Shown here one piece after another: positions 11,169 through 61,970 of a stretch of DNA of 64,000 nucleotides. The first letter of the stretch is position 1; every line of letters starts with the position of its first letter. Source of the DNA: a virus. Under the pieces are notes generated by a model. It was given only the letters and a program-made list of their open reading frames with translations. It did no database searches and was not told where the DNA came from. The stretch spans positions 7,980-71,979 of IMG/VR virus record IMGVR_UViG_3300037743_000151; one strand, 5' to 3'. The translations under genes and the position numbers were made by a program.

Positions 11169-11266
11169 CCCTCGCCACCGCGCTCGGCCTCGCCTGCCCC
11201 GGCATCAGCCTTCTCGCCGCACTCGCACTCGCCATACACGCCATCCGCAACCGGAGGAAACCATGA
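11165..11266 (+). CDS. Small membrane protein (33 aa)
   Basis: MTLATALGLACPGISLLAALALAIHAIRNRRKP. ATGA overlaps at both ends. Confidence 0.35.
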   Translation: MTLATALGLACPGISLLAALALAIHAIRNRRKP

Positions 11267-11628
11267 CCGAACAGCCCTGCCCCTTCTGCGAGATCGTCGC
11301 CAGCCGCGCACCCGCCACCGTCGTGCACGAGTGGTCCGACGTCATCGCCATCGTCCCGCTCAACCCCGTCGTCGACGGCCACACCCTCATCATCCCGAAG
11401 CGCCACGTCCGCGACTTCGCCACCGACCCCGAGGTGTCCGCCGACGCCATGCTGCACGCCGCCCAGCTCATGCGGTGGACCGACCGCCCCATGAACCTGA
11501 TCACCAGTCGGGGGCGCGAGGCGACGCAGTCCGTGATGCATCTTCATCTGCACCTAGTTCCCCGCGCGGCCAACGACGGCCTGGCGCTGCCCTGGCACAG
11601 CGGCCGATCCAAGGCAGGCACCCCGTGA
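11263..11628 (+). CDS. HIT (histidine triad) family nucleotide hydrolase/transferase
   Basis: CPFCEI... and the histidine triad VMHLHLHLVPR. Confidence 0.8.
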   Translation: MTEQPCPFCEIVASRAPATVVHEWSDVIAIVPLNPVVDGHTLIIPKRHVRDFATDPEVSADAMLHAAQLMRWTDRPMNLITSRGREATQSVMHLHLHLVPRAANDGLALPWHSGRSKAGTP

Positions 11629-12171: not shown

Positions 12172-12207
12172 GCGAAGGCCCCGTCGACTTTTCGGCGGGG
12201 CCTTCGC
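12172..12207. terminator. Bidirectional stem-loop between convergent genes
   Basis: GCGAAGGCCCCG (12172-12183) pairs with CGGGGCCTTCGC (12196-12207). Confidence 0.6.
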
Positions 12208-12219
12208 TGCATTCCGGGG

Positions 12220-12666
12220 TCAGGGCCGCCACGACTCCAGGTAGCCGGGCCGGTCCGCGTAGGGCAGCGCGAGCAGGCGCAGCACGTAGTCGCCGTGGAA
12301 CCGGCGCTTGTTTGCCTCCAGGTGCCGCGAGCACGAGTCGTACTCGTCGAAATCCTCGGGGCGTGCGCCCTCGTAATTGATGCAGGGCAGGCCGGGGTGC
12401 GGGTCAGCACCGGGCGGGAGGTAGGCGTCGAGCATCTGCCGTTTCGCGTCGATCTCCCGCAGCACCCGCGCCGGATCATGGCGGACGATGTGCTCAGCGA
12501 CGCCAGCCCAGTTCGCGGAGGCACACTCCTCTGCGCGGTCACCTTCGGTAGCCACGATGACGCCGGTCTCGCCGATCTGCCGGAAGCTGTCGCCTGCTCT
12601 CCGCGCGATCCGCTCATCCTCATCGAGGCAGGCCGTCAGCCACTGCACCAGATCCACGCCGCTCAC
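12220..12666 (-). CDS. DUF6221-like protein
   Basis: HDPARVLREIDAKRQMLD ... LRLLALPYADRPGYLESWRP matches the family as remembered. GTG start overlaps the upstream stop. Confidence 0.6.
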   Translation of the reverse strand: MSGVDLVQWLTACLDEDERIARRAGDSFRQIGETGVIVATEGDRAEECASANWAGVAEHIVRHDPARVLREIDAKRQMLDAYLPPGADPHPGLPCINYEGARPEDFDEYDSCSRHLEANKRRFHGDYVLRLLALPYADRPGYLESWRP

Positions 12667-13208
12667 TCCTCAGCCTCCTCCCGGTCCGCCCACGCCAGCA
12701 GCACCGCCGCCAGATCGCGGGCGTACTGCGGGTCATCCACGACCCGGAGTCGGTTGAACCGGATCGACTGGCCGCGCCCCTGAACGATCACGTAGGCGTC
12801 GCCGCCGCTCGGGTAGTCGGCGATGCTCATGCGGGCGTACTGCCCCGCTTCGGTGCTCGCCAGAAGTGCGGCGAAATCCTGCCGGGTGTACTTCAACGGC
12901 ACCCGCCAGTCGGCGTCGTTGACGGACTCGTTCTCGTCTTGGGCGACGGCAGCCATGGACTCTCCTTGATCGGCTTCCGGGGTGAGGTCGGTCCGCTTGC
13001 CCTGCCGCTTCGGGTTGGCCTCGAACCACGCGGCCACCTCGTCGGCGCGGTAGCGGATTCTCGTGGAGCCCTCCGCCGGAACGGGCTGAGGGAAGGTGGC
13101 GCTGCGCCGGTACGTGTGCACCGACGACCGGCTGACGCCGTGCTCCTCCGCGATCTGCCCGATGGTGATCAAGCGCGGACTCCCCTCGTGTTCAGGGCTT
13201 TTGGGCAC
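12663..13208 (-). CDS. HTH DNA-binding regulator (excisionase/MerR-like N-terminus)
   Basis: ITIGQIAEEHGVSRSSVHTYRR looks like an HTH. GGGAGGA SD lies 7 nt before GTG 13208. The longer ORF runs to 13256. Confidence 0.55.
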   Translation of the reverse strand: MPKSPEHEGSPRLITIGQIAEEHGVSRSSVHTYRRSATFPQPVPAEGSTRIRYRADEVAAWFEANPKRQGKRTDLTPEADQGESMAAVAQDENESVNDADWRVPLKYTRQDFAALLASTEAGQYARMSIADYPSGGDAYVIVQGRGQSIRFNRLRVVDDPQYARDLAAVLLAWADREEAEE

Positions 13209-13279
13209 GGCTACATCCTCCCTGAACATCTGGACAATGTCCAGAAGTTCTGCCACTGTGGAACAGCACCAACGAGTAA

Positions 13280-13322
13280 GCCCCTCGGCCCACTACGGAG
13301 CAGCAACTCCGGGCCGAGGGGC
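13280..13322. other. Extended hairpin in a divergent control region
   Basis: GCCCCTCGGCCC (13280-13291) pairs with GGGCCGAGGGGC (13311-13322). An inner GGAG/CTCC pair extends the stem. Confidence 0.5.
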
Positions 13323-13506: not shown

Positions 13507-13632
13507 GTGAGCGACATCGACGCCGACATCGACGCCGCCTGGGCCCTCACCCAGCAACGCATCGCCGCAGCCGCAGCCGCCGCCGAGGCAGCCGCCCAGG
13601 CCGCACGCGCCGCCGAGGAGGCCACCCGATGA
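13507..13632 (+). CDS. Small Ala-rich protein (41 aa)
   Basis: GTG 13507; its stop overlaps the next ATG (ATGA at 13629). Confidence 0.3.
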   Translation: MSDIDADIDAAWALTQQRIAAAAAAAEAAAQAARAAEEATR

Positions 13633-13733
13633 CCTGCTGCGGACGCCCCATGCAACAAGACGGCAACCAGTACGTCTGCCGCAAATGCGGCGCCTGGACC
13701 GACCCCGGCACACAAGCCGGAGGGCAGCACTGA
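13629..13733 (+). CDS. Small zinc-ribbon-like protein (34 aa)
   Basis: MTCCGRPMQQDGNQYVCRKCGAW; coupled to its neighbours. Confidence 0.4.
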   Translation: MTCCGRPMQQDGNQYVCRKCGAWTDPGTQAGGQH

Positions 13734-13924
13734 TGGGCTGGTTCAACCGCCGCGACCAAACAACCCGCGCCTACCCCGCCGCCGGCACCTCCGTCACCGG
13801 CGACAGCCGCCGCTTCCTTCGGGCCAAGACCGGCGGAGCCCGCCAAGCCGGACGGGGCGCCCAGGCATGGGAGGACGCCGACCGAGCCGACGAGCGCGCC
13901 CGCCGCGGCCGCTGGTCCCGCTAA
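13733..13924 (+). CDS. Small basic protein (63 aa)
   Basis: ATG 13733 overlaps the upstream stop. Confidence 0.4.
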   Translation: MGWFNRRDQTTRAYPAAGTSVTGDSRRFLRAKTGGARQAGRGAQAWEDADRADERARRGRWSR

Positions 13925-14003
13925 CCCACCAGACCGCCGGCCCAGCGCCTACAACCCCCAGAGCGCTGGGCCGGCTTCCGCTCCAGAACAGGACCACACC
14001 GCC

Positions 14004-14162
14004 GTGACCCGCCGCCGCACCACCACCCACCGCATCGGCCTACACAACCCGCTCGGACGCTTGGGCTTCACCGTGCTGGCGGCATTCGCACTCCTCAACG
14101 GACTCCTACTGCCCGGCCTCATCTGCACCGCCATCGCCATCTACGCCTGGAGGAACCGGTGA
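14004..14162 (+). CDS. Small membrane protein (52 aa)
   Basis: VTRRRTTTHRIGLHNPLGRLGFTVLAAFALLNGLLLPGLICTAIAIYAWRNR. GTGA overlap with the next gene. Confidence 0.4.
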   Translation: MTRRRTTTHRIGLHNPLGRLGFTVLAAFALLNGLLLPGLICTAIAIYAWRNR

Positions 14163-15226
14163 AGAAACTCACCGGAGGACAGCGCACCGTCCTCGCCCTC
14201 ACCACGATCCCCATGATCGCGGTCGGGATCGGCGGGGCCATCGGCACCTACGCCAACGCCGCCTCCGTCCTCCACCGCAAAGAGACCGCCCTCGGCGTCG
14301 TCGCGGCCGGCGAAGGCGCCACCCTCGTCGCCGCACTCGTCATGATCGTCGTGACGATGCTCGGGCAGAGCGCACCGGCCGTCGTGCGCGCAGCACTCTG
14401 GCTCCTCCCCGCCACCGCCTCCGTCATGGGCCTCGCCATCGCCCCCACCCTCCGCGAGGCCGTCGTCTTCGCCCTCACCCCCCTCGCCATGACCGCCAGC
14501 GCCGAGGGCGTTTCCTTCCTCGCCCGCCGGATCGTCGTGCACCGCACCGGCGTCGACATCGAGGCGCAGCAGCGGAACGCCTCCACGTTGCGGCAGATCG
14601 CCTACCACCGGGCGCGCGCCGAACGGCACCCGTGGAAGTGGGTACGCAGGCGGTCAACGCTGAAGGTGTGGCGGCTCCTCGGCCACGCGGGCGACGGTGA
14701 CGCGCAGCTGGGCGCCGGGCTCATGGTGGTGCAGCGAGCCCGACTCACCGAGGGCGCCAGCGATGCGCTTGGTGAGCTCCTCAGCGGCAGCCCGGCTCAG
14801 CTTGAGCTCACCGCGGCTCAGCCCCCTGTGAGCCCTGAGCCTGAGCCCACCGACTTCAACGAAGTCGCCGAGACCGCGATCCACGTCGCCACGCCCGAGC
14901 CCCTCAGGGATCCGACACCGGTACCAGTCCTTGACACGGACGTCCTCCGCACCATCTCTGACCTGCCCGTCTCACGTGAGCCCGGCTTGAGCCAGGCTGA
15001 GCCAACCACCGTGAGCCGCGCTGAGCCGAGCCCCGAGCCCGCGCCTGAGCCAGAGATCAACGAGCAGGAACGCCAAGTCCTCGAACTCGCCAACCGGCTC
15101 AGAAACGGTGAGCCGCTCACCAAGACCACCGCCGCCCAGATCCTCGCCGTGAGCCCGGCCACCGCCGGCCGACGACTCAAGGAAGCCCGCGGCCGAATCA
15201 ACGACGGAACGGGGCTGTACCTATGA
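14159..15226 (+). CDS. DUF2637-like polytopic membrane protein with C-terminal HTH (SpdA-like architecture)
   Basis: Four N-terminal hydrophobic segments, then HPWKWVRRRSTLKVWRL, and a C-terminal LTKTTAAQILAVSPATAGRRLKEAR. Confidence 0.6.
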   Translation: MKKLTGGQRTVLALTTIPMIAVGIGGAIGTYANAASVLHRKETALGVVAAGEGATLVAALVMIVVTMLGQSAPAVVRAALWLLPATASVMGLAIAPTLREAVVFALTPLAMTASAEGVSFLARRIVVHRTGVDIEAQQRNASTLRQIAYHRARAERHPWKWVRRRSTLKVWRLLGHAGDGDAQLGAGLMVVQRARLTEGASDALGELLSGSPAQLELTAAQPPVSPEPEPTDFNEVAETAIHVATPEPLRDPTPVPVLDTDVLRTISDLPVSREPGLSQAEPTTVSRAEPSPEPAPEPEINEQERQVLELANRLRNGEPLTKTTAAQILAVSPATAGRRLKEARGRINDGTGLYL

Positions 15227-15843
15227 GCCGCATCCCAGGCGCCGACGAGCTACGTGTGCGCGCCCTCCTCATCGCCCGCCAGGTCGGACCCGACGCCATC
15301 CCGCCGAAGCCCACGACGAGGCCGAAGGACTGGCTCGACGACATCATCACCACCGACATGGCACCCGCCGCCGAGAAGCCGGCGGAGCCCGAGCCGAAGG
15401 AGAAGCCCGCGCCGGCCGCGCCCGCGAAGGCAACCAAGCCGCGCCCCGCCAAGACCGCTACGAAGAAGAAGCCGAAGAAGGCCAAACGGCCCAAGCCCGG
15501 CACCCCCCGCGCGGCGTTCGACGGCCGTCCGCCCGCACCCCGCCAGTCCCTCGCCGACGCCTGGGACCGGGTCCCGTACCGGCTGAAGTGGCTGGCCTAC
15601 CACGCCTCCGCCGCCTATCTCGGCTGGTCAATAGGCCTGGTCGACTGGGCCACCTACGTCACCGCGTGGATCGCCACCACCGGGCTCGTTGGCCCGCAAG
15701 CCCTGTTCTGGTACTGCGCGGCCGGCGGGACCGTCCTCGTCTACCGGCGTACTCGCGGCTGGTGGACGCCCGCCGCGTGGCTTGCTGCCGTCCCTGTTAC
15801 GTCCACTGTCGTCGGCGTGCTCCTGTACGCCCCGCACCCATAA
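15223..15843 (+). CDS. Membrane protein with Lys/Ala/Pro-rich (histone-tail-like) cytoplasmic segment
   Basis: PAKATKPRPAKTATKKKPKKAKRPKP followed by 3-4 hydrophobic helices. ATGA overlap. Confidence 0.55.
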   Translation: MSRIPGADELRVRALLIARQVGPDAIPPKPTTRPKDWLDDIITTDMAPAAEKPAEPEPKEKPAPAAPAKATKPRPAKTATKKKPKKAKRPKPGTPRAAFDGRPPAPRQSLADAWDRVPYRLKWLAYHASAAYLGWSIGLVDWATYVTAWIATTGLVGPQALFWYCAAGGTVLVYRRTRGWWTPAAWLAAVPVTSTVVGVLLYAPHP

Positions 15844-15854
15844 AGGAACCTGTC

Positions 15855-16259
15855 GTGAACAGCGTGTTCGGCAACCTCGGCCCGGTCGGTCTCGCCCTCG
15901 TCCTGACGGTGCTGCTGGTGTTCGGCATCCCCGGCGGCGGGCAGTTGAAGCCGCTCGGCTGGTGGCCGACGCTGCTCCTGTCGATGCTCGCCGGGTCGGC
16001 GTACAAGGCGGCAGGCGGCCTATTCAAGATCGTTCCGGATCTGGTTGGCAGCCTGATCGGCACCGTCAACAGTGTTCTGCCCGGCGCCACGATGCCCGCA
16101 CTCGCCCTCGCGTTGGCGATCTTCATCCTGTTCAAGAAGCTGACCACCAAGCAGGTCGGCCTCCTCGGCATCGCCTTCTGGTACGTCGCTGCAGGCGCGG
16201 GCGGCACGTGGTCGTACCTGTCCGACTCGATCGCTCACCTCGGAACGAGCCTCGCGTGA
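15855..16259 (+). CDS. Polytopic membrane protein (SpdB-like size and topology)
   Basis: In-frame GTG 15855; four hydrophobic segments. Confidence 0.55.
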   Translation: MNSVFGNLGPVGLALVLTVLLVFGIPGGGQLKPLGWWPTLLLSMLAGSAYKAAGGLFKIVPDLVGSLIGTVNSVLPGATMPALALALAIFILFKKLTTKQVGLLGIAFWYVAAGAGGTWSYLSDSIAHLGTSLA

Positions 16260-16975
16260 GCTACTTCAACCTGCGCAAACGCGACACCGAGGCCGAGGTC
16301 GAGCCCGGCGGAGCCGAGGCGGAGGAGCCCGCGGAGACGCCGGAAGAGACCGCCGAGGAGCCGGAAGGGGAACCGGAAGGGGAGCAGCCCGCCAAGCAAC
16401 ACGGGCCGCTCCTCACCGGCATCCTCGGCCCCGGACGGTGGATCGCCGCCCGCCTCGGATCTAGCTGGGCCCTCGGCGTGCACGTCGTGGCCGTGTGGGC
16501 GATCGGCTTCTACGGCGGGTGGATTGCGGCCGGCGTCATCCTCGGATGGCTGGCCGCGGTCCTCGTCTTCGTCCCGCGCGAGTTCAAGGATCGGGTCTCC
16601 GGGTGGATCGAACGGTGGATCAGCGGCCGCTCAGAGCCCGATGAGCAGCCCGAAGAGGAGCGCCCCGCAAGCGCCCCCGAAGAGGTCTACGCCGCCACCC
16701 TCCAATGGGTGCGCGGCCAGGTCGGCGACAGCAACGGAATCCACCTCTCCGACCTCCTGGCCCACGCCCACGCCCACAACCTGCACACCGACCTCGATGT
16801 GACCGCCTTCCGGGCAGTGCTGGAGAGGTGGGGATTCCCCATCCGCCAGCAGCTCAAAGTGGGTGGCAAAAACCGGCCCGGAATCCACCGCGACGACCTT
16901 CCGAAACAGCCCCTTCCGACCCCCTCCCCCGAGGAGACTGGTTCCGCAACTACCACCGCCGTCTACCCGATCTGA
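16256..16975 (+). CDS. Membrane protein with acidic N-terminus and a C-terminal soluble domain
   Basis: GTGA overlap at 16256. A Glu-rich tract is followed by hydrophobic helices (WAIGFYGGWIAAGVILGWLAAVLVFV). Confidence 0.55.
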   Translation: MSYFNLRKRDTEAEVEPGGAEAEEPAETPEETAEEPEGEPEGEQPAKQHGPLLTGILGPGRWIAARLGSSWALGVHVVAVWAIGFYGGWIAAGVILGWLAAVLVFVPREFKDRVSGWIERWISGRSEPDEQPEEERPASAPEEVYAATLQWVRGQVGDSNGIHLSDLLAHAHAHNLHTDLDVTAFRAVLERWGFPIRQQLKVGGKNRPGIHRDDLPKQPLPTPSPEETGSATTTAVYPI

Positions 16976-17022
16976 TCTGCGCAAATACCTTGTCGACTAC
17001 CTGACTTACCTGGACGGTAACC

Positions 17023-17859
17023 GTGCCTACCAAGGGCTCCATCTACACCCTCACCGATCCGCGCGACGGCACCATCAGGTACGTCGGCAAGACCACGAAA
17101 ACCCTGCCAGAACGTCTCGCTGGCCATCTCGCGTCGCCGACCAACCCAGCCATGCGGCTGTGGATCAACACGTTGGCATCGCAGCGGATGCTTCCCCTCA
17201 TCACCCTCGTGACGACCGCGGCGCAAGAGCGGCTCGGAGCCGAAGAAGAGCGACAGATCAGGAGGCACGCCGGGCGAGGGCATCGACTCTTCAACGCGCC
17301 GTACTACCACCAGCATCTGAACGATCTCACCGCCCCGTCCGCAACCCGTAAGCCGAACGTCGCCCTTCTGTCTTCCGAGTTTCCGACCTCGCTGCCCGCC
17401 TTCTATGAGAAGCAGTACGGGGCGCTCGCCCGAGTGCGGATCACGGAGAAGCGGACTGCTGTACTCGTGGCCGCCATCGTCGCTCTCCTGGCCGTCGGAG
17501 TGGTCGCTTACATGCTCCTGAGGCTCCGGCTCGTTCGTTTCGTTGCAGCCGCCAGCATGGTCGGGTTGTACCTCTCCGGCGTCGGTTTCGATCGGCTCGT
17601 GCGGGAACAGTTGCTGCCCCGTCTGCCGGTCGAGCGGATCGTGGCCCTCTGGGACGCATACCTGGCACATCCGCTGATGCTGGTTGCGCTGCACGTTCTG
17701 GCGGCGATGTACTTCCACGCGCTGAGCGTGTACGTCGACATGCGGCGGAGCCTCCCGAAGGCGGTCGATGTGGGCCCCCCGCGCGAGTTTGGCGCCGTGG
17801 AAATTGCTGCGGCAGCGGCCCGTGACCTAGATCTGGCGGTTTTGGAAGCGAGGCCCTGA
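17023..17859 (+). CDS. GIY-YIG nuclease domain fused to a multi-pass membrane domain
   Basis: GSIYTLTDPRDGTIRYVGKTTKTLPERLAGHL...EEERQIR...LFN, then several hydrophobic helices. Confidence 0.65.
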   Translation: MPTKGSIYTLTDPRDGTIRYVGKTTKTLPERLAGHLASPTNPAMRLWINTLASQRMLPLITLVTTAAQERLGAEEERQIRRHAGRGHRLFNAPYYHQHLNDLTAPSATRKPNVALLSSEFPTSLPAFYEKQYGALARVRITEKRTAVLVAAIVALLAVGVVAYMLLRLRLVRFVAAASMVGLYLSGVGFDRLVREQLLPRLPVERIVALWDAYLAHPLMLVALHVLAAMYFHALSVYVDMRRSLPKAVDVGPPREFGAVEIAAAAARDLDLAVLEARP

Positions 17860-18107
17860 TGCCGTGGATCTACGAATGCCGCGCCTGCGACGCCGTGTCA
17901 CCGGACCAGCACGACCGCAGCGAGGACGCCGAAGCGGAGCAGGAACAGCACCGCACGGACGCGCACGGCGAGCTTGCGCCGGCCGCGGGGGACGGGGTAC
18001 GGCGGGTGCACGCGGAGGCCCGCGGTGACGGCTGTCTACCGGCCGGATCGTGGTGGGCTGTGCTGTTCCTGCTGGCGTTGTTCCTGTCGAACTGCTGGGG
18101 CCGCTGA
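17859..18107 (+). CDS. Small protein with C-terminal transmembrane helix
   Basis: TGATG junction at 17859. CRAC motif; C-terminus WWAVLFLLALFLSNCW. Confidence 0.4.
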   Translation: MPWIYECRACDAVSPDQHDRSEDAEAEQEQHRTDAHGELAPAAGDGVRRVHAEARGDGCLPAGSWWAVLFLLALFLSNCWGR

Positions 18108-18162
18108 CCTGTTTGACAGTGCTGGCAGACTGGGTTCACGCGCCGGGACCGCTCGGCAAAAC

Positions 18163-18199
18163 GAAGGCCGCCAGACTTTCCCCCCCATCTGGTGGCCTT
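18163..18199. terminator. Stem-loop between convergent operons
   Basis: GAAGGCCGCC ... GGTGGCCTTC (one G:U pair). A second GC hairpin (CCCGCCC/GGGCGGG) follows at about 18206-18232. Confidence 0.5.
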
Positions 18200-18238
18200 C
18201 GTCATTCCCGCCCCGCTCGATTCCGGGCGGGGCCTTCG

Positions 18239-20402: not shown

Positions 20403-20989
20403 GCGGTCTGCTCCTCGCTGGCGGCCGGGCGCTCCGGGGCGGTCGTCTTGCGAAGCCGATCGGCGCGGTCCTTGTAACGCGCGTCCGGCTCGATGCGCTG
20501 GGCGGGGACCAGGATCCGATGGGGTCCGAAGCGACGGTTCAGCTCCCCCCACCGCAGATCGGCGCTGCGGTACCCCGCCATGTGCCGCCACTTCTCACCT
20601 TCCCGACGCCAGCGCCGACGGTTCGGCATGACGGTCACCTCGGTCCCGACGGGAGGCTCAGGCTTGATCTCTGGGCTCAGCCCCTGCTCCGCGAGCGACC
20701 TGCGCCACCAGGGGTCACTCATGTACGCATCGAACTCCGGGCTGAAAGACGGCGACACCGTGATGTTGGTGTTGCACGGGGTACAGAGCAAGCCACGCAC
20801 CGCCCACTGCCCCACCGTCGCGTCGTGGTCAACCACCAAGAAGCCGTGCTTCGTGTCTTGCGGAACCGCGCGACAGATCTGGCATCGGCCTTCGGCATGG
20901 GCCAGGAGGCGGTCGTACTCTGCGCAGTCCATCTGGTACACGCGATGGCTGCATGGGCTCTTGGGCGGCTTGATGTGGTTCATCGTCAT
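20399..20989 (-). CDS. Recombination endonuclease VII-like protein
   Basis: CQICRAVPQDTKHGFLVVDHDATVGQWAVRGLLCTPCN matches the Endonuclease_7 pattern (C..C...DHDH-like...RGLLC..CN). Confidence 0.75.
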   Translation of the reverse strand: MTMNHIKPPKSPCSHRVYQMDCAEYDRLLAHAEGRCQICRAVPQDTKHGFLVVDHDATVGQWAVRGLLCTPCNTNITVSPSFSPEFDAYMSDPWWRRSLAEQGLSPEIKPEPPVGTEVTVMPNRRRWRREGEKWRHMAGYRSADLRWGELNRRFGPHRILVPAQRIEPDARYKDRADRLRKTTAPERPAASEEQTA

Positions 20990-21246
20990 CCCAATTCCTG
21001 CTCGGCGCGGACTTTGCGTGCGGCCTCGACGACTTCTCGGTCCGGCCTGTCCGGCAGCTTGGCGCCGGGCTCGCGGATGTACCAGTCGATCAGCTGCCGG
21101 ATCACGGCGGCGCGCTCGGTGCCCATGGCCTTGGCGGCGGCGTCGAAGTCGTACCAGGTGTCGCCAATGCGGATCTGGCGGGCGGGGGTCTTCGGCACGT
21201 TGGGCGACATGCGCCGACTGTATTCGGGTGTAGCTACCTGCGTCAT
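20986..21246 (-). CDS. Ribbon-helix-helix (CopG/Arc-like) regulator
   Basis: RQIRIGDTWYDFDAAAKAMGTERAAVIRQLIDWYI. Paralogous to 58991..59182. It heads the leftward operon next to the operator array. Confidence 0.6.
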   Translation of the reverse strand: MTQVATPEYSRRMSPNVPKTPARQIRIGDTWYDFDAAAKAMGTERAAVIRQLIDWYIREPGAKLPDRPDREVVEAARKVRAEQELG

Positions 21247-21330
21247 CTCTGGGCCTCTCTGGTGTAGCTACAGAATCTCGGTCGAAGTGCTTGCGGTGTA
21301 GCTACACCCAACTGTACGGTGTAGCTACAC
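21228..21330. promoter_or_regulatory. Operator array: four copies of GTGTAGCTAC(AC), two of them perfect 12-bp palindromes
   Basis: Sites at 21228-21237, 21262-21273, 21296-21307 and 21319-21330 (the last two are GTGTAGCTACAC). They lie between divergent genes. Confidence 0.7.
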
Positions 21331-21365
21331 CCCAAGCAAGGGGTCGAACCACCGAGGGGACCCCG

Positions 21366-21749
21366 ATGACTGCCGCCACCCGCACCCGCCGCAACACCCT
21401 CCGCACCGCCACCCGCACCAACCGCGCCCTCGGCTACCGCACCCTCTCCGGCCACATCGCCGCGCTCGTCGACCAGGGCAAGCTGATTCGCACCAGCACC
21501 TTCCTCGACCGCATCGGCGGTGGCGACCTCCCCGACGGCCAGCAGTCCTGGTACGGCCGCCACGCCAAGAAGGCCTACAAGGCACAGCACGGCGCCGACC
21601 CCGTCCGCGTCTGGGCGCAGCACCGCACCACCGGACGCTGGATCCACGTCCACGTCTACGGCCCCATCGACGAAGCCCTGTACGCCGGCCTCCGCTCCTA
21701 CAAGGCCACCCGCCACCTCCTCGCCTCCTCGTACACGGAGGCCGCCTAG
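21366..21749 (+). CDS. Hypothetical basic protein
   Basis: In-frame ATG 21366 downstream of the operator array. Confidence 0.5.
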   Translation: MTAATRTRRNTLRTATRTNRALGYRTLSGHIAALVDQGKLIRTSTFLDRIGGGDLPDGQQSWYGRHAKKAYKAQHGADPVRVWAQHRTTGRWIHVHVYGPIDEALYAGLRSYKATRHLLASSYTEAA

Positions 21750-25727: not shown

Positions 25728-25997
25728 ATGCTCCTCACCCAGGACGGGCTACGCGCCCTCGAAGGCTTCACCCTCTGCGCCGCACCGCTATACGACGAGG
25801 ACTTCAACCGCGTCGAAGGCAACGACGGCATCATGCTCACCTGCCACCACGGGCACGAGCACTTCTGGCAGAAGCACTGGCCCGGACATGTTGCCGCACC
25901 GCGCCTCCGCGACCTGGTCCTCGTAGCGCAGTCGCACTGGGAGCAGGAGCACCGCGAGACGCAGGCTGAGAACGCGGAAGCCGAGGTGGCCAAGTGA
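25728..25997 (+). CDS. Hypothetical protein
   Basis: ORF; its stop overlaps GTG 25994. Confidence 0.5.
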   Translation: MLLTQDGLRALEGFTLCAAPLYDEDFNRVEGNDGIMLTCHHGHEHFWQKHWPGHVAAPRLRDLVLVAQSHWEQEHRETQAENAEAEVAK

Positions 25998-27019
25998 AGC
26001 GCCTGCTCCTCACCGGGGCGTCTGGGTTCGTCGGCGCCACCGTCCTCGCCCACGTCCTCACCCACACGGACTGGCATGTGACGTGTCCGGTGTCGTACCG
26101 GCACCACGGCGACGGCGCCCGCATCAACGCCGTCCTCGACGCCCAGCCCGACGCCCGCGCCCGGGTCGACGTCATCGCCCACGACCTGGCACTCCCGATC
26201 ACGCCGATCCTCGCCGACCGGATCGGCCCGGTCGACTACGTGTGGAACATTGCCTCCGAATCCCACGTCGACCGCAGCCTGTCGGACCCGGTGTCGTTCG
26301 TGCGGAACAACGTCGAACTCCAGCTGAACATGCTGGAGTACGCCCGCCTCGCGAAGCCCCGCATGTTCCTGCACATGTCGACGGATGAAGTGTTCGGGCC
26401 GGCCGAGCCGGGCTACCGGCATCACGAGTGGGACAGCATCCGCCCGTCGAATCCGTACGCGGCCAGCAAGGCGGCGCAGGAAGCGATCGCGTACTCGTAC
26501 TGGCGCGGGATGTCTGTGCCTTTGATCATCACCAACACGATGAACCTTCTTGCACCTGCGCCACAGGCCGCGGAGAAGTTCATTCCGAAGATCGCCCGCG
26601 CCATCTTCGGCGGCGAGAAGCTCACCGTCCACGCCTCCCCGGACGGCGCCTCCGGGTCACGCTGCTGGGTTGATGCCCGCGACTTCGCCGCCGCCTGGCT
26701 GTGGCTCACCGAGCATTTCGACGGCGACGAACGCCTCACCTACTACCCGACGATGCCCACCGGCCCGCTCAGGTACAACATCGTCGGCGAGGAGGCCACC
26801 AACCTCGACGTGGCGCTGCGGATGGCGGAATCGGCCGGCCGCACGCTGGACTACGAGCTGGTCGACTACCACTCGCAGCGGCCGGGCCACGATCACCGGT
26901 ATGCGCTCGACGGGTCGAAGCTCGCCGAACTGGGGTGGCCCGGCCCGCGGCCGCTGGATGACACGCTGTCGGACATCGTGAAGTGGTACGCCGACAACCC
27001 GCAGTGGCTCACCACGTGA
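25994..27019 (+). CDS. NDP-hexose 4,6-dehydratase-like SDR (RmlB-like)
   Basis: TGASGFVG, STDEVFG, YAASK and RPGHDHRYALDGSKL motifs. Confidence 0.8.
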   Translation: MKRLLLTGASGFVGATVLAHVLTHTDWHVTCPVSYRHHGDGARINAVLDAQPDARARVDVIAHDLALPITPILADRIGPVDYVWNIASESHVDRSLSDPVSFVRNNVELQLNMLEYARLAKPRMFLHMSTDEVFGPAEPGYRHHEWDSIRPSNPYAASKAAQEAIAYSYWRGMSVPLIITNTMNLLAPAPQAAEKFIPKIARAIFGGEKLTVHASPDGASGSRCWVDARDFAAAWLWLTEHFDGDERLTYYPTMPTGPLRYNIVGEEATNLDVALRMAESAGRTLDYELVDYHSQRPGHDHRYALDGSKLAELGWPGPRPLDDTLSDIVKWYADNPQWLTT

Positions 27020-27243
27020 GCACGCCAGTCCCCGGAGAGGGGCCCCACCGGCGGGCGGCTAAAGGCTGTCTGAACGACACCGCGAAGTGCCTCGACGAGA
27101 TCCCAATCGGCCGCGTGAACACCGACGTGATGACGGCGCACGCGGCGAAATCCCAAGTCTTCGCCACAGCCGCTGTCGCCCACGCCCTGCTGGAACTCGG
27201 CGATGTCCTGCGCGCCACGCTGCGCGGAGCAGCCGATGAGTGA
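27016..27243 (+). CDS. Hypothetical small protein
   Basis: GTGA overlap at 27016. Confidence 0.35.
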   Translation: MSTPVPGEGPHRRAAKGCLNDTAKCLDEIPIGRVNTDVMTAHAAKSQVFATAAVAHALLELGDVLRATLRGAADE

Positions 27244-27913
27244 CATCTTCCGCGCCGCGGTGATTCCGACGCGGGACCGTCACGACCTGCTCGCCGACTG
27301 CATCAACTCTGTGGTGGATCAGGTTGACCGGGTCATCGTTATCGACAACCTCTCTGATCCGCCGATCGATCCGGAGCCGTGGCACGGCAAGGTCGGCGTG
27401 GTCGCGATCCCGATCGACCCGCCGAACATCAGCACCCTGTGGAACGTCGGCCTTGCGCTCGCCGACGCATCCGCCCACGCCGAGCAGGCCGACCGGTGGG
27501 ACATCGCCGTCCTCAACTCCGACGTCACCGTCCCACCCGGATGGATCGACGGCCTGTCCACCGCGATGCGCTCCACCACCGCGGTCCTCGCCTACCCCGA
27601 CCAGCACGGCGGCCGACACCAGATCCTCCACACGAAGGCCGAGCCGGTGGACCTGCGGACTCGGATCACGGGCTACGCGTACCTGCTGCGCGGCGAGGCA
27701 GGGCTACGCCTCGACGAGACCCTCGCGTGGTGGTACGGCGACGACGACCTCGACTGGCGTGCCCGCGAGCAAGGCGGCGCGCTCCTCGTACCGGGCCTGG
27801 CCGTCGAACACCGCTGCCCGAACGGCTCGATGTACGAACGGCCGGAGCTGAAGACCCAGGCAGGCCGGGACCGCGAGACCTTCAAAGCGAAGTGGGGCCG
27901 CACCCCATGGTGA
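27236..27913 (+). CDS. Family-2-like glycosyltransferase
   Basis: AAVIPTRDR...VIVIDN...NSD...DDDLDWR pattern. Confidence 0.7.
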   Translation: MSDIFRAAVIPTRDRHDLLADCINSVVDQVDRVIVIDNLSDPPIDPEPWHGKVGVVAIPIDPPNISTLWNVGLALADASAHAEQADRWDIAVLNSDVTVPPGWIDGLSTAMRSTTAVLAYPDQHGGRHQILHTKAEPVDLRTRITGYAYLLRGEAGLRLDETLAWWYGDDDLDWRAREQGGALLVPGLAVEHRCPNGSMYERPELKTQAGRDRETFKAKWGRTPW

Positions 27914-27926
27914 ACAGGAGCACAAG

Positions 27927-28733
27927 TTGAAGATTGCAGTAACCGGCGGTAAAGGCCTCCTCGGCCAGGCCACCATCCAAGCAGCCGAAAACGCCGGCCA
28001 CGACGCGTGGGCGTTCGACCGCACCCAAGGCCTCGACATCCTCAGCAGCCTCGACGCACTCGACGGCGCCGACACAGTCATTCACCTGGCCGGGATGCTC
28101 GGCACCTCCGAGCTGTTCGACACCCCAGAGCAGGCAGTCGACGTCAACATCAAGGGCGCGCTACGGATCCTGCAATGGTGCCGAGAACACGACGCCGCAT
28201 ATGTCGGCATCACGATGCCCGACGTGTACCCGTCGGTGTACACCGCGACGAAAGTCTGTGCGCAGCGGCTGGCCACCGCCTGGCATGTGGCCTTTGGGCT
28301 GCCAGTCAGCCATGTACGGGCGTTCAATGCCTACGGTCCCGGGAGTCACATCGGTCCCGGCTATCCGAAGAAGATCGTCCCGACGTTTGCGCGTTCCGCA
28401 TGGGCCGGAAAGCCGCTCCCGGTGGTAGGCAACGGAGAACAAATCGTCGACCTGATCCACGTCGATGACGTGGCCCGGATGCTGATTGACGCGACACAGC
28501 ACGGCGACAACCCAGTGTTCGAAGCCGGCACCGGGCAGCCGGTCACGGTCAGCGAAGTAGCGCACAAGGTCCTCGACATCACCGGCAGCACGGCCGGGAT
28601 CGAGTACCAGCCGATGCGGCGCGGTGAAATCCCGGTGCAGGTCGCTGCGACCGGGGAGGGCTGGGACCGCTTGGACTGGCGGCCGCGCCTGGATTGGGAC
28701 CGGTTCGCGGAGGCCGTGGAGTCGTACCGGTGA
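27927..28733 (+). CDS. NAD-dependent epimerase/reductase (SDR)
   Basis: VTGGKGLLG Rossmann motif and YTATK catalytic motif. TTG start. Confidence 0.7.
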   Translation: MKIAVTGGKGLLGQATIQAAENAGHDAWAFDRTQGLDILSSLDALDGADTVIHLAGMLGTSELFDTPEQAVDVNIKGALRILQWCREHDAAYVGITMPDVYPSVYTATKVCAQRLATAWHVAFGLPVSHVRAFNAYGPGSHIGPGYPKKIVPTFARSAWAGKPLPVVGNGEQIVDLIHVDDVARMLIDATQHGDNPVFEAGTGQPVTVSEVAHKVLDITGSTAGIEYQPMRRGEIPVQVAATGEGWDRLDWRPRLDWDRFAEAVESYR

Positions 28734-31783: not shown

Positions 31784-31939
31784 ACTCGCCGCTGCTGAGT
31801 GGCGCCCCTGTGCGCTTCTTCCCGGGGGCGCCGACGGGTCAATGGGGCATGCACAGCCCTGGAGCACGTCCAGCACACGAGGCACCCACCAGACCACGCT
31901 CCGGAACGCGACAGCCCCCACACCCCCGACAATCCCGGC

Positions 31940-33352
31940 ATGGGCACCAACGACAGGGCGACAGTAGCGGCACGCGCCGCCGCCCTCCTCGGCGCCCAAC
32001 TCACCCCACGCTGGACACCACTACCCCACCAAGTACCGCCCCCCGGCAACTGGTATGGCTGGCTCCTCCTCGCCGGCCGCGGCGCCGGCAAGACCGACGC
32101 CTGCGCCGAATACATCGCCCGCCACATCGCCGGACCACCCTGCCTCCCGGGCCCGGTACCCCACTGGGTCGGCATCATTGCGCCCACCCAGGGCGACGCC
32201 GTCACCGCCTGCGTGTCCGGGCCGTCCGGTATCAAAGCCCATGACCCCACCGCCGTCGGCCCGATCACCACGGCAGGCGGCACCGTCGTCCGCTGGCCCA
32301 ACGGGAGTCAGGCCAAGCTGTACGGGGCGAATAGTCCGGAAGATGTGGAAAGGCTCCGCGCTGGGGGCAATACCTGCGTGGCCTGGTTGGAGGAATTTGC
32401 CGCGTGGCGGCACATGCAGGACGCCTTCGACCAACTCCGCTTCGGCCTCCGCTCCGGTCCGCGCCCACACTGGGTCGCCTCCACCACCCCGAAGCCCAAA
32501 CCCCTACTGAAGCGCCTCATGCAAGGCGAGATCCCGAACGTCGTCACCACCACGGCGACCATGTACGACAACCCACATCTCCCGCAGCACATCCGCGACA
32601 TGCTCGAAGACGCCTACGCGGGAACCGACCTCGGCGAGCAGGAGCTGTACGGCCGACTCCTCGACGAGATCAAGAACGCCCTATGGCGAAGGAAGTTCCT
32701 CGCCGCCGGCCGCATGCGCCTCGACGACCTGCCGGACCTCATCCGCCGAACGGTCGGCGTCGACCCTTCCGGCGGCGCAGGGGAGCAGGGCATCGTCGTC
32801 ACCGCGAAGTCGGGGCTTCTGCTACCCGGACTGCTGCCCGGCCCCGAGCTGGACCCCGACGAACCGGCCCCGGTCGGTGCACCACGCCCGCAGCCGCACG
32901 GCTTTGTCCTGGACGACCGGTCGTGCCAGCTCCCGCCGGAGGGCTGGGGGCAGCGCGCGGTACAGGCCGCGATCGACTGGGAGGCCGAGGACGTGGCGGT
33001 AGAGGTCAACTACGGGGGGGACCAAGCGATCGCCGTGATCCGCACAGCGATGGAGAAACTCGGGGTGGATATCCCGATCCGGAAGGTGCGCGCGTCGCAG
33101 GGCAAGGCGATCCGTGCACAGCCAGTGGCCGCGCTCAGCGCTCAGGGCCGGTGGCATCACGCGGGCACATTCCCGGAATTGGAGGACCAGCTAGCCACGT
33201 GGTACCCGGAGTTGGGCTGGTCGCCCGATCGCCTCGACGCACTCGTATGGGGACCATGGCATATGAAACTCGTGGGCACGATGACGCACGGCCAGGGTTC
33301 GTTGGGCGGGGATCTGGCCAGAAAGCAGATTGTCGGGGGGCGGCTACGGTGA
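31940..33352 (+). CDS. Terminase large subunit
   Basis: Walker A LLAGRGAGKTD, WLEEFA, and a C-terminal nuclease-like VGVDPSGG...VEVNYGGD. Confidence 0.85.
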   Translation: MGTNDRATVAARAAALLGAQLTPRWTPLPHQVPPPGNWYGWLLLAGRGAGKTDACAEYIARHIAGPPCLPGPVPHWVGIIAPTQGDAVTACVSGPSGIKAHDPTAVGPITTAGGTVVRWPNGSQAKLYGANSPEDVERLRAGGNTCVAWLEEFAAWRHMQDAFDQLRFGLRSGPRPHWVASTTPKPKPLLKRLMQGEIPNVVTTTATMYDNPHLPQHIRDMLEDAYAGTDLGEQELYGRLLDEIKNALWRRKFLAAGRMRLDDLPDLIRRTVGVDPSGGAGEQGIVVTAKSGLLLPGLLPGPELDPDEPAPVGAPRPQPHGFVLDDRSCQLPPEGWGQRAVQAAIDWEAEDVAVEVNYGGDQAIAVIRTAMEKLGVDIPIRKVRASQGKAIRAQPVAALSAQGRWHHAGTFPELEDQLATWYPELGWSPDRLDALVWGPWHMKLVGTMTHGQGSLGGDLARKQIVGGRLR

Positions 33353-35720: not shown

Positions 35721-35772
35721 TGCGGCCGGACATGGCGTGACGTGTCCTGGCACGGTGCGGCCGGACATGGCG
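35721..35772 (+). repeat. 17-nt direct repeat TGCGGCCGGACATGGCG x2
   Basis: Copies at 35721-35737 and 35756-35772. Confidence 0.85.
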
Positions 35773-35816
35773 GGGCAAGGCCGGGCGGGGCGCGGCGCGG
35801 CGGGGCTTCTCTGGGT

Positions 35817-35842
35817 GGGCCCCCACCTTCGGGTGGGGGCCC
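35817..35842 (+). terminator. Strong stem-loop (11-bp stem, TTCG loop)
   Basis: GGGCCCCCACC TTCG GGTGGGGGCCC. Confidence 0.7.
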
Positions 35843-35852
35843 TTCGCCATGC

Positions 35853-35863
35853 CCGGAATGATC
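35853..35863 (+). promoter_or_regulatory. CCGGAATGATC motif, copy 2
   Basis: Exact 11-mer (13-mer GCCCGGAATGATC shared with copy 4), 54 nt before portal ATG 35917. Confidence 0.6.
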
Positions 35864-35916
35864 TTCTCGGCCGCGCTCTTACCCTCCCCTCGCAGACCGC
35901 GAACAGGGAGACCCGG

Positions 35917-37698
35917 ATGGCCTGGTGGCACACCTTCACCCGACGCGGCACACCCACGCCCACACCCCTCCCCACCCACACCGAACAGCAACCCAACGCA
36001 ATCACCGCCGCCGCAGCACCCGTCTCCAGCCCCCGCACCGACCTCATCCGCAACACCGACGGCTGGCAAGAAGAAGTCTGGGGATTCCACGACACCCTCG
36101 GCGAATTCCGGTACGCCACCGACTGGGAAGCCAAACGCTTCTCCCGCGTCCGCCTCTACGCCGCCAAGCTGGAGCCAGGGGCCGACGAGCCCGTACGCGC
36201 CAAGGCCGGAACCGCCGTCGACCTCATGACGGCGTTCGCTGGTGGCCCCGCCGGACAAGCGCAGATCATGGGCGGCCTCGCCACGCAACTACGGGTCCCC
36301 GGCGAGGGCTACCTCATCGTCGAGAGCGTGAGCGGTATCGAGCAGTGGTCGGTGCGCTCCATCGACGAAGTCCGTGCCGCACGCCAGCGGTACGAGGTCA
36401 TCGACGAGAACAGCCCGCAGTCCGGCAACAACTGGCGCCCCCTCGCCCCCGACTCGATGGCACCGATCCGGGTATGGCGGCCGAACAAGCGCTGGCACCA
36501 CATCGCCGACAGCCCCACCCGCGCCGCGCGTTCCACGATGCGGGAACTGGAGTTGGTGAACCGGCACATCGTTGCCCAGTACCTGTCGCGGCTCGCGTCC
36601 GCCGGTGTCGTCATGTTCCCGTCGGAGGTCACCTTCCCGCAGAAGGAGGAGTTCGCCGACGCGCCGGACCCGTTTGTCGCCGAGTGGATCGAGAACGCGA
36701 GGGTCGCGATCGATCAGCCGGGCACCGCCAGTGCCGTGATCCCGATGCCGATCAAGGTGCCTTCCGAGCTCGTCGAAAAGATCAAGCATCTCGACTTCAC
36801 CCTGAAGATCGACGAGAAGATCATCGAGAAGCGGGACAGCGCCATCAAGCGCCTCGCCTCCCAGCTCAACGTGCCCGCCGAAGTCCTACTCGGCATGGGC
36901 GATTTGAACCACTGGAACGCCTGGAGCAGCGACGAAACCAGCCTCAAAGTCGACGTCGCCCCCGACGCCGAACTCATCTGCCAGGCCATGACCACCGGCT
37001 ACCTCCAGCCCCGCCTCAAAGCATCCGGCGTCGAAGACTGGGCGAACTGGGTCATCTGGTACGACATGTCAGAACTGACCCTGCGCCCCGACCGGTCAGA
37101 CGACGCCATCGCCCTGTACGACCGCCTGGAACTCAACGGCGCAGCCCTCCGCCGCGAAACCGGATTCAACGAAGCCGACAAGCCGACCAACGAGGAACTC
37201 AAAGAGCAGGCCCTCAAGGTCATCATCCACACCCTGCCGTCCGGCGCCGGTAGCGCGCTCACCGAACTCATCGGCGAGCAGGTCACCATCGCCGCGACCG
37301 CACCCATCGCCCCCGGCGAACAACCCGAGCCGGAGCCCCCGCCGGAAGACCGCACACCACCCGACCCCGACATTGCACGCGAGGCGACCGCGCAAGCCCG
37401 CGAGGACCGCATGGTTGCGCAGGCCCGCGAGCTGCACGCCGTCCGGTTCACGGTCGGCCGGCCTACGGAGCTGCTGCACCCGGCGGCGTGTTCGCAGCAC
37501 GCCTACTCCTGCCCGTTCACGCACGCCGCATTGAAGCTCGCCGACCTGCCGAGGCCCGGGACGTCGGGTGTGTATGAGGCGCGCCTGGATCCGTTCGGCC
37601 GGTTCACGATCGGCCGGCATGCGCCGCTGATGGACACGTCCGGCTTCTTCTCGACGATGACTCGGAGCAGTAATGGATTCGCTCGCAGCCGCGGCTGA
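35917..37698 (+). CDS. Portal protein
   Basis: AGGGAGA SD. About 590 aa, positioned before MuF/protease. Typical portal length and composition. Confidence 0.75.
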   Translation: MAWWHTFTRRGTPTPTPLPTHTEQQPNAITAAAAPVSSPRTDLIRNTDGWQEEVWGFHDTLGEFRYATDWEAKRFSRVRLYAAKLEPGADEPVRAKAGTAVDLMTAFAGGPAGQAQIMGGLATQLRVPGEGYLIVESVSGIEQWSVRSIDEVRAARQRYEVIDENSPQSGNNWRPLAPDSMAPIRVWRPNKRWHHIADSPTRAARSTMRELELVNRHIVAQYLSRLASAGVVMFPSEVTFPQKEEFADAPDPFVAEWIENARVAIDQPGTASAVIPMPIKVPSELVEKIKHLDFTLKIDEKIIEKRDSAIKRLASQLNVPAEVLLGMGDLNHWNAWSSDETSLKVDVAPDAELICQAMTTGYLQPRLKASGVEDWANWVIWYDMSELTLRPDRSDDAIALYDRLELNGAALRRETGFNEADKPTNEELKEQALKVIIHTLPSGAGSALTELIGEQVTIAATAPIAPGEQPEPEPPPEDRTPPDPDIAREATAQAREDRMVAQARELHAVRFTVGRPTELLHPAACSQHAYSCPFTHAALKLADLPRPGTSGVYEARLDPFGRFTIGRHAPLMDTSGFFSTMTRSSNGFARSRG

Positions 37699-61338: not shown

Positions 61339-61970
61339 ATGATCTCTTCCCCCCACGTCATTCTTCGCGCCTCAGCGAAGGCGCGTTCTTCCAGTTCAGC
61401 CTTGGTGTAGGGGTGCTGTTCGTCACCCGATAGGACGGCCTCGACAGAGCCGGGGCGCCAGTCCAGCGCCGTCTCCACACCCTCCAGGAATGCCTTGGCG
61501 TACCGGTCCCGAATGCCCCTCTCCAGCGCGCGCACGTCCTCGACATCGGCGCCGCACCGCTGCGCGATAACGCGCTGGCTGAGACGCTGCCTGGTGCGCT
61601 CCACCCGGAACCGCCGCCCGAGCCGCTGCCACGCGAGTTCGTCAGGCAGGAACCGCAGTCCCATCTCGTCTGCTTCAATGCGGCGCCAGTTGTGGGTCTC
61701 GTTGTACTTAGGCAGGAGCGCTCTGATCTGGCGTTCTTCAACCTTTTCGGCTATGAGGCGGCTTGGGTATCGCTCCCATGTCACCTTGGCTGCTTCCTTG
61801 ATCCACGCGGATCCGCCGCGTCGGTGGCCCTGAATGCGTTGTGCCAGGTCATCGGTGACGCCTATGTAGAGCAGGTCCCCGGAGGCGTCGTAGCCGTAGT
61901 AGACGAATGAGGCATTGTGGGCGCGCAGGAGGAATTCTCCGGTGGCCTGCGGCGCTGGTGACTGGCGCAT
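61335..61970 (-). CDS. GIY-YIG nuclease domain + XRE-type HTH protein
   Basis: FVYYGYDASGDLLYIGVTDDLAQRIQGH...E...PKYN, then RTRQRLSQRVIAQRCGADVEDVRALERG. Confidence 0.65.
   Translation of the reverse strand: MRQSPAPQATGEFLLRAHNASFVYYGYDASGDLLYIGVTDDLAQRIQGHRRGGSAWIKEAAKVTWERYPSRLIAEKVEERQIRALLPKYNETHNWRRIEADEMGLRFLPDELAWQRLGRRFRVERTRQRLSQRVIAQRCGADVEDVRALERGIRDRYAKAFLEGVETALDWRPGSVEAVLSGDEQHPYTKAELEERAFAEARRMTWGEEII

Follow-up and report, generated by a model that had tools for sequence, protein, structure and literature searches.

Introduction

What does a phage do with a set of genes built like the DNA-spreading module of a Streptomyces conjugative plasmid, when the motor of such modules is absent? 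The question is raised by a block of rightward genes, here called g1 to g10 (positions 13507-18107), on a stretch of viral DNA of 64,000 nucleotides that we call the window (positions 7,980 to 71,979 of IMG/VR record IMGVR_UViG_3300037743_000151; coordinates are those of the window unless a comparison locus, numbered with L, is named). A sequence-only reading had likened the first eight genes to the spd (spread) genes of such plasmids and had suggested, among other roles, a captured plasmid module. The comparison of related loci presented here points instead to a recurrent, conserved variant of the module, in which a small membrane protein, g8, takes the place of the TraB translocase.

How DNA crosses the hyphal cross-walls during Streptomyces conjugation is poorly understood, and the diversity of the Spd proteins is too great for them to be followed by sequence. 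The core protein of the block, g5, belongs to a large and readily recognised family that occurs in plasmids, chromosomal loci, phage-plasmids and phages and usually has TraB as its downstream neighbour, and its loci present a clean either/or between this pump and g8, for which a winged helix is predicted. Modules of g5 and g8 could thus offer a natural case in which to study the Spd channel without its motor, and their genes are concrete starting points for the question of whether temperate actinophages, independently of virions, spread DNA through the mycelium or exclude it. Even without a phenotype the assignments are of value for annotation, the block genes being currently labelled 'hypothetical'. 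Thoma et al. (2015, PMC4447253) have already pointed to putative SpdB2 homologues in actinophages, with a possible part in the spread of phage DNA. Apparently new are the recognition of g5 as one family that usually adjoins TraB, the set formed by g6, g7, g8 and g10, and the strict alternation of this set with the translocase.

Neighbourhoods of g5: translocase or g8

Genes were called from frame analysis and start-codon inspection, and all those of the block point rightward. The ones on which the comparison turns are:

14159-15226, + strand: g5, 355 amino acids, core protein (PHROG 16651, E 1.2e-58)
15223-15843, + strand: g6, 206 amino acids, Pro/Ala/Lys-rich N-terminal half and Trp-rich membrane C-terminal half
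15855-16259, + strand: g7, 134 amino acids, small polytopic membrane protein with about four transmembrane (TM) helices by family consensus
16256-16975, + strand: g8, 239 amino acids, acidic N-terminal tail, two TM helices and a predicted C-terminal winged helix (amino acids 141-214)
17859-18107, + strand: g10, 82 amino acids, C..C...H...H motif and C-terminal TM anchor

PHROG 16651 is of unknown function, and the g5 family, which is found in Streptomyces and has at least 846 homologues, is unnamed; some RefSeq records carry the label 'conjugal transfer protein', and some homologues are called DNA-binding protein or sigma factor. Iterated hidden Markov models (HMMs) for g4-g10 and for the translocase were run over every locus compared, the loci coming from plasmids, phage-plasmids, isolated phages, prophages and genomes. 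Among the 68 loci tabulated, 53 of which are viral-contig loci with g5, a translocase is present in 38 and g8 in 22, and no locus has both. The translocase lies 1.2-5 kb downstream of g5 and g8 1.5-2.5 kb downstream, usually together with g6, g7 and g10. The same picture emerged from 80 loci sampled independently from different Streptomyces genomes (translocase 64, g8 5, both 0, neither 7, too short 4), with a TraB-like translocase 0.8-3.5 kb downstream of g5 in 64 of the 76 informative loci.

When distinct g5 N-domains are counted, 95 of 136 belong to loci with a translocase (type A, at distances of 0.8-5 kb downstream of g5), 25 to loci with g8 (type B, to which the window belongs) and 16 to loci of unknown type; g8 and the translocase occur together in none of the 136. 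The position of g8 is the slot held by TraB in most g5 loci. The type-B g5 sequences form several groups interleaved with type A, such that a type-B sequence (L193) and a type-A sequence (L029) can be 81% identical, and the partner, translocase or g8, has therefore been swapped repeatedly. Type A is well illustrated by small plasmids with the gene order GntR, small open reading frames (ORFs), g5-like gene and a gene for an FtsK-like protein of 815 amino acids, and by a 15-kb plasmid and the pSLE1-type phage-plasmids, where g5-like operons are divergent from GntR regulators and a TraB-like gene follows downstream.

The order g6-g7-g8-g10 is retained in many loci, distant ones included, down to 30-45% identity. 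In distant g6-g7-g8 modules the preceding protein has TM helices, a linker and a helix-turn-helix (HTH)-like end, and is not homologous to g5. Two such proteins (L271 4524-6278 and L272 891-1955) combine three to four TM helices with a long linker of low complexity and an HTH-like C-terminus; to judge by their sequences, the g5-like architecture is recruited from a different family in these modules.

As these comparisons indicate, the form without a translocase is a conserved variant that recurs in at least 25 distinct loci and has partner genes of its own, and not a truncated capture. On the same grounds the absence of TraB is best taken as the mark of a conserved alternative module and not as an accident of capture, and the notion of a captured plasmid module proves too simple.

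Predicted structures of g5 and g8

The AlphaFold model of g5 begins with a bundle of four TM helices (amino acids 6-36, 43-67, 74-94 and 98-130), in agreement with hydropathy, and family alignments show that this bundle (amino acids 6-130) carries the conserved polar motifs AAGEGA, LGQ, TPxAMTAxxEG and ARRxV. Two well-predicted cytoplasmic helices (amino acids 134-176) come next; a Pro/Glu-rich linker, which is disordered, then leads to an HTH of three helices at the C-terminus (amino acids 302-351). The HTH resembles sigma-70 region 4, with a sub-threshold match to Sigma70_r4 (E 0.002) and a non-significant Foldseek match to 3n97; Foldseek of the g5 model against the PDB gave no significant match. 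The polytopic protein with a C-terminal HTH described from the sequence alone is thus borne out by hydropathy, a sub-threshold profile match and the model. The best-conserved part is the TM bundle with its polar motifs, not the HTH, and the DNA encoding the TM domain (14165-14759) is the sole part of positions 1-25000 of the window that is conserved with plasmids at the DNA level.

The proposed membership of g5 in DUF2637 (PF10935) was tried and rejected. A hmmscan at E <= 1 returns Sigma70_r4 only, a DUF2637 match is equally absent from plasmid and phage homologues of g5, from pJV1 SpdB2 and from pIJ101 SpdB, and precomputed Pfam assignments are empty for 120 of the 120 g5 homologues listed. 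Like SpdB2 of the pSVH1/pJV1 type, g5 is a predicted four-TM integral membrane protein. The g5 family profile pairs with pJV1 SpdB2 at an hhalign probability of 0.4% (P 0.13), aligning the two C-terminal HTHs only, and with pIJ101 SpdB at 0.1%, values with which a rerun of hmmsearch and hhalign agrees; g5 has no similarity to pZL12.73c. Profiles of g5-g8 compared with pIJ101 SpdA, SpdB and KilB, pJV1 SpdB1-3 and TraA, and pZL12.73c gave nothing significant, and no counterparts of g6, g7, g8 and g10 were found among pJV1 or pIJ101 proteins. The spd resemblance noted earlier therefore stands for the architecture and for the linkage of g5 to tra operons, and falls for sequence homology to the Spd proteins of pJV1 and pIJ101. 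By its modelled architecture g5 looks like SpdB2, without being demonstrably a member of the SpdB2 family.

In g8, a conserved domain of 75 amino acids is modelled by AlphaFold with a predicted local distance difference test score of 90-96 and the topology H-b-H-H-b-b, that of a winged helix. Its best Foldseek matches in the PDB are almost all winged-helix DNA binders, none of them significant, and a sequence search against PDB chains returned nothing. The family comprises 618 cluster representatives at 50% identity; the 150 best-scoring of these measure 81-516 amino acids, mostly 180-290, none reaching translocase length, and no Pfam domain is found in the family, longer members included. We considered whether g8 might be a truncated TraB and rejected this, in view of these lengths and of an hhalign comparison that pairs only the winged helix with the TraB C-terminus at a probability of 0.2%. 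By these sequence comparisons the g8 family is a family of its own and not a broken TraB, and its likeness to the C-terminal winged helix of TraB would be a positional analogy only. The location of the block proteins in the membrane and the DNA-binding folds of g5 and g8 can be regarded as well predicted by these models, and the genomic linkage of the block is seen directly in the loci compared.

Layout of the block and its smaller genes

The remaining genes of the block are:

13507-13632, + strand: g1, 41 amino acids, Ala-rich ORF
13629-13733, + strand: g2, 34 amino acids, CxxC...CxxC zinc-ribbon-like peptide (Zn_ribbon_TiaS E 0.006, sub-threshold)
13733-13924, + strand: g3, 63 amino acids, basic (15 K+R)
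14004-14162, + strand: g4, 52 amino acids, single-TM peptide translationally coupled to g5
17023-17859, + strand: g9, GIY-YIG-like N-terminal domain and three to four TM helices (Pfam GIY-YIG E 9.4e-4, below the cut-off)

Eight genes chained by overlaps had been claimed for this region. Overlaps are found at five of the seven junctions within g1-g8 (g1/g2 ATGA, g2/g3 TGATG, g4/g5 GTGA, g5/g6 ATGA and g7/g8 GTGA), but gaps of 79 bp and 11 bp separate g3 from g4 and g6 from g7, and g1 is doubtful. The block also extends past 16975, with g9 and g10 belonging to the same unit as g1-g8. Third-position GC supports the frames of the block from about 14000 onward and is weaker for g1-g3. Hydropathy predicts a TM peptide in g4, a polytopic protein in g5 and membrane domains in g6, g7, g8, g9 and g10; with its overlaps, the block has the form of a translationally coupled operon of small membrane proteins, as in the TraB/Spd modules of Streptomyces, and the window contains neither the FtsK-like TraB nor the divergent GntR repressor of such modules. 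Scans of g1-g10 against Pfam, NCBIfam and PADLOC found no family above threshold.

The small proteins vary in their conservation. Whether g1 is a real gene is uncertain from its sequence, with no homologue in 270 loci and only low-complexity, sub-threshold matches in Pfam. A 91% identical copy of g2 occurs in L012 and a relative in L068, and a 62% identical copy of g3 in L033. Homologues of g4 lie directly upstream of g5 in L028-L031, L033, L036, L195 and L196, which makes it a companion of g5 in both module types. The zinc-ribbon-like g2, with its CxxC...CxxC, and the TM peptide g4 agree with the earlier description, as do the TM predictions for the four-helix g7 and for g8 with its acidic N-terminus. 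The Lys/Ala/Pro-rich, histone-tail-like tract reported in g6 is present but does not characterise the family, in which conservation is confined to the membrane half and the number of Lys varies from 1 to 16. Syntenic homologues number 15 loci for g6, 14 for g7 (which matches PHROG 38677, E 5.3e-32, of unknown function) and 13 for g10, the last conserved gene of the module. A GIY-YIG-like domain fused to TM helices directly after g8, as in g9, is found also in L015, and a NERD-type nuclease lies within the equivalent block of plasmid pSITFR-21c. Membrane-tethered nucleases thus recur in the modules (g9, L015 13057-13929 and L068 18009-18674) without being constant members, and g9 is an accessory. 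Searches of phage records with the block itself were negative, by megablast of the block against phages and by tblastn of g7 and g8 against isolated phages.

Interpretation of the module

The reading that we favour, although we give it slightly less than an even chance, makes the block a version of the conjugative spread/transfer membrane module of Streptomyces that is carried by a phage, lacks the motor and serves in DNA tethering or passage. The block would be a motor-less variant of the Spd/Tra module because g8 replaces the translocase in g5 loci and the two never occur together; as far as sequences and models can tell, the relation of the block to spread modules has its basis in genomic linkage and architecture, and not in DUF2637. 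The block proteins would assemble in the cytoplasmic membrane with their predicted DNA-binding domains towards the cytoplasm, and the complex would keep the DNA of the phage or prophage at the membrane or a cross-wall. The C-terminal winged helix of TraB recognises clt, a cluster of 8-bp direct repeats, and g8 might supply DNA recognition in the same manner. DNA could then pass between hyphal compartments passively through the putative g5 channel or, alternatively, be driven by a pump acting in trans, either a host protein of the FtsK/SffA type or TraB from a plasmid in the same host. For the block proteins, the formation of a complex, the binding of DNA and its movement are all inferred.

Several observations weigh against this reading. 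No translocase was found in the window by tblastn with eight translocases, by a Walker-A scan or by the iterated translocase HMM; the sole P-loop in the window is that of the terminase, and the same HMM detects 38 translocases in other loci. Close relatives likewise have none in the 8.3 kb past the right end (L176, L178 and L179) or in the 10 kb before the left end (L095), and these two flanks share sequence, as would be expected of a circular or permuted genome; the roughly 8 kb of the source record (presumed 71,979 bp; identical copies of g5 and of g8 are each on record from a JGI contig of this length) that lie outside the window were judged from these relatives. A k-mer cluster scan found no convincing clt-like cluster of 8-mers near the block. 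The block proteins have no significant sequence similarity to experimentally characterised Spd proteins, a membrane-anchored, nuclease-like g9 inside the block would fit exclusion better than spread, and the basic tail of g6 is not conserved in its family. As to repeats, four of the seven copies of the octamer GCTGAGCC/CGGCTCAG in the window fall within the region encoding the g5 linker (14793-15095), where they are probably a by-product of coding for a repeated 'AEP' peptide rather than clt.

Somewhat unlikely, though second among the explanations we weighed, is that the block forms a membrane complex in the lysogen which blocks or destroys DNA arriving by TraB conjugation or by injection from related phages; in this complex g8 would be a pump-less substitute sitting in the g5/Spd channel, and g9 a nuclease bound to the membrane. 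The replacement of TraB by g8, the two never co-occurring, is consistent with such a decoy, and so are the GIY-YIG-like TM protein g9 in the block and the NERD nuclease in the equivalent block of pSITFR-21c. The setting is that of a moron, outside the structural genes, with its own divergent regulator and strong hairpins on either side, and SpdB3 of pJV1 belongs to a family of Pycsar-effector TM proteins. On the other hand, nuclease genes are not constant members of the module and the GIY-YIG match is below the Pfam cut-off; toxin, sensor and ATPase components were not found among the block genes, and g1-g10 gave no match in PADLOC-DB 2.0 at E <= 0.01, so that the membrane-based defence system proposed from the sequence alone finds no support there.

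It is quite improbable, in our judgement, that g5 and g8 tether or regulate the phage DNA for replication, segregation or regulation within a cell, with no transfer between cells. Both proteins end in an HTH or winged helix, that of g5 resembles sigma-70 region 4, the block lies among early-type genes, and the labels DNA-binding protein and sigma factor given to some g5 homologues point the same way. Anchoring of this kind would leave unexplained the linkage of g5 to TraB, which holds for about 70% of the distinct g5 loci (95/136), and the conservation of g5 is greatest in the polar-motif TM bundle and not in the HTH, which argues for a membrane function beyond anchoring. That the block is merely the decaying and functionless remnant of a plasmid tra/spd operon that lost traB is very hard to credit: translocase, Kor and Rep were not found in the window and the downstream genes differ in the closest relative, L012, but the ORFs are intact, with a strong third-position GC bias and coupled starts, the g6-g7-g8-g10 synteny is kept in many loci to 30-45% identity, and the g8 family has 618 clusters at 50% identity.

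The motor-less spread module that we favour leads to a wider proposal, which we regard as unlikely. Among the mobile elements of Streptomyces, a single membrane conduit for DNA may exist in two interchangeable forms, one powered (a g5-type channel with TraB) and one unpowered and DNA-recognising (g5 with g6, g7, g8 and g10), the latter being preferred by temperate phages and prophages. If so, a phage genome could move as naked DNA between compartments by means of a borrowed FtsK-like pump or, alternatively, a pump-less decoy could shut the conduit to incoming conjugative DNA. Either way, phages of mycelial bacteria would have a further means of spread or exclusion, peculiar to such hosts and independent of virions.

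Regulatory elements and phage context

The following elements lie around and within the block:

12172-12207: hairpin with a 16-bp stem between convergent genes (dG, the folding free energy, -39.1 kcal/mol; z -5.3 on the + strand and -5.0 on the - strand)
12220-12666, - strand: DUF6221 protein, 148 amino acids (Pfam PF19730, E 4.6e-30), co-oriented with the HTH_17 gene
12663-13256, - strand: HTH_17 (MerR/excisionase-type) DNA-binding protein, 197 amino acids (Pfam PF12728, E 5.6e-6, at the cut-off)
13224-13322: divergent control region upstream of g1, with a 13/13 palindrome GAACATCTGGACA-T-TGTCCAGAAGTTC (13224-13250) and a hairpin (13280-13322)
13936-13975, + strand: hairpin with a perfect 13-bp stem in the g3-g4 gap (dG -34.8, z -6.0)
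18161-18233: two adjacent GC-rich hairpins (dG -53.4, z -7.2 on the + strand)

The block had been described as bounded by terminators. The hairpins at both places are strong (z -5.3 and -7.2), and the right pair separates the rightward block from leftward genes; the left one, probably a bidirectional terminator, is the edge of the divergent HTH_17/DUF6221 pair and not of the block. The hairpin between g3 and g4 might act as a terminator or attenuator within the block and so divide it into g1-g3 and g4-g10. The HTH_17 protein, encoded divergently to the block and with a 62% identical homologue preceding the module in L016, could be a local regulator, though not one of the GntR/KorA kind. The palindrome overlaps the start of its gene, and the hairpin 30 bp beyond has a perfect 12-bp stem (z -5.8). 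By tblastn, six GntR proteins detected no TraR/KorA in the window, and pZL12-type ParA/ParB and pJV1-type Rep were likewise without a match; the earlier statement that traB, rep and kor are missing from the window holds by tblastn and HMM (for pJV1-type Rep and GntR/KorA), and for FtsK/TraB it extends to the flanks of close relatives. Homologues of the DUF6221 protein adjoin g5 in L001 (18296-19080), L010 (8468-8812), L029 (8416-8853), L033, L039 and L058; they stand beside g5 in both module types, with translocase or with g8, and often in several tandem copies.

As for the element that carries the block, the marker genes are:

31799-33352: terminase large subunit (Pfam Terminase_6N, E 3.6e-21)
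35737-37698: portal (Pfam Phage_portal sub-threshold; tblastn matches 877 phage records, the matches listed being annotated as portal)
60445-61356: tyrosine integrase

Terminase large subunit and portal, the mark of a tailed-phage genome, are thus both encoded in the window. The structural genes are 70-90% identical to those of viral contigs of 66-72 kb, and the window is, by its gene content, a temperate siphophage-like element, because of the terminase, portal and tyrosine integrase together with this identity. Its G+C content is 65-72%, and all relatives found come from Streptomyces or Kitasatospora. A phage-plasmid of the pZL12/pSLE1 type was rejected as the identity of the whole window, what is common to both being g5, part of the terminase and one other gene, the last two at 35-37% identity to pSLE1/pZL12.

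The block is surrounded by early-type genes and lies outside the structural ones. The early region also contains a gene for a HIT-family (histidine triad) hydrolase (11263-11628; Pfam E 3.2e-16), of which L015 has a 58% identical copy at an equal relative position. At 415-890, within a gene at 184-1659, a long coding tandem repeat of 12 nucleotides yields DQVW-type tetrapeptide repeats in the N-terminal half of a DUF6745 protein, a family very often met on viral contigs (129 relatives). The 14-bp palindrome GGTGTAGCTACACC occurs four times at 21227-21335, between the divergent genes 20986-21246 (- strand) and 21291-21749 (+ strand); the array resembles a repressor operator array and is probably an immunity switch. 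Just upstream of the terminase, at 25994-28733, are two NAD-dependent epimerase/dehydratases and a GT2 glycosyltransferase, and the equivalent place in L010 holds a 2-oxoglutarate-Fe(II) oxygenase, glycosyltransferases and a methyltransferase; these genes could have a role in sugar modification of DNA or of the surface.

Comparison with known systems

SpdB2 is a pore-forming and oligomerising protein that binds double-stranded DNA non-specifically and is needed for pock formation. The pJV1 protein (371 amino acids) and g5 are alike in having four TM helices at the N-terminus, an HTH-like end at the C-terminus and, between them, a long linker that is charged or disordered, but they share no significant sequence similarity. 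Likewise, both belong to translationally coupled operons of small membrane proteins, as described for spd operons (PMC4447253), and homologues of g5 adjoin traB. In pJV1 spdB2 lies downstream of traB, whereas g5 is upstream of the translocase slot; in pSVH1 spdB2 precedes traB (PMC4447253). Compared with the TraB-Spd DNA translocation complex (Thoma et al. 2015), the g5 family is similarly tied to TraB by its genomic position, and the window differs in having no TraB, no GntR TraR/KorA and no recognisable clt.

A separate observation concerns SpdB3 of pJV1 (L270 1778-2221), which matches the Pfam family PycTM, the TM domain of Pycsar defence effectors, at 1.6e-14; a pSLE1 gene (L004 3878-4330) is likewise annotated as PycTM. 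Unexpectedly, plasmid 'spread' proteins thus appear to be connected by family with a defence effector.

The pSLE1-type phage-plasmids (85-91 kb) carry a full-length homologue of g5, with 58% identity, in a replicon that also contains phage genes. They differ from the window by a GntR gene, ParAB and a TraB-like gene 3.5 kb downstream of g5. Synteny of pSLE1 with the plasmid-phage pZL12 has been described (PMC4487206), and pZL12 itself has a different membrane protein in the g5 slot.

Among isolated phages, a parallel to the window is offered by the Woodruffvirus phages TP1604, YDN12, Xkcd426, Mischief19 and phiSAJS1, whose g5 homologue is 44-53% identical to g5 in the TM domain and in which an FtsK-like gene is a routine annotation. 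Unlike the window, they lack g6, g7, g8 and g10 and have kept an FtsK-like translocase at the right end of the genome, one small gene from the g5-like gene. As far as sequence similarity can tell, these homologues show that the g5 family is at home in phages.

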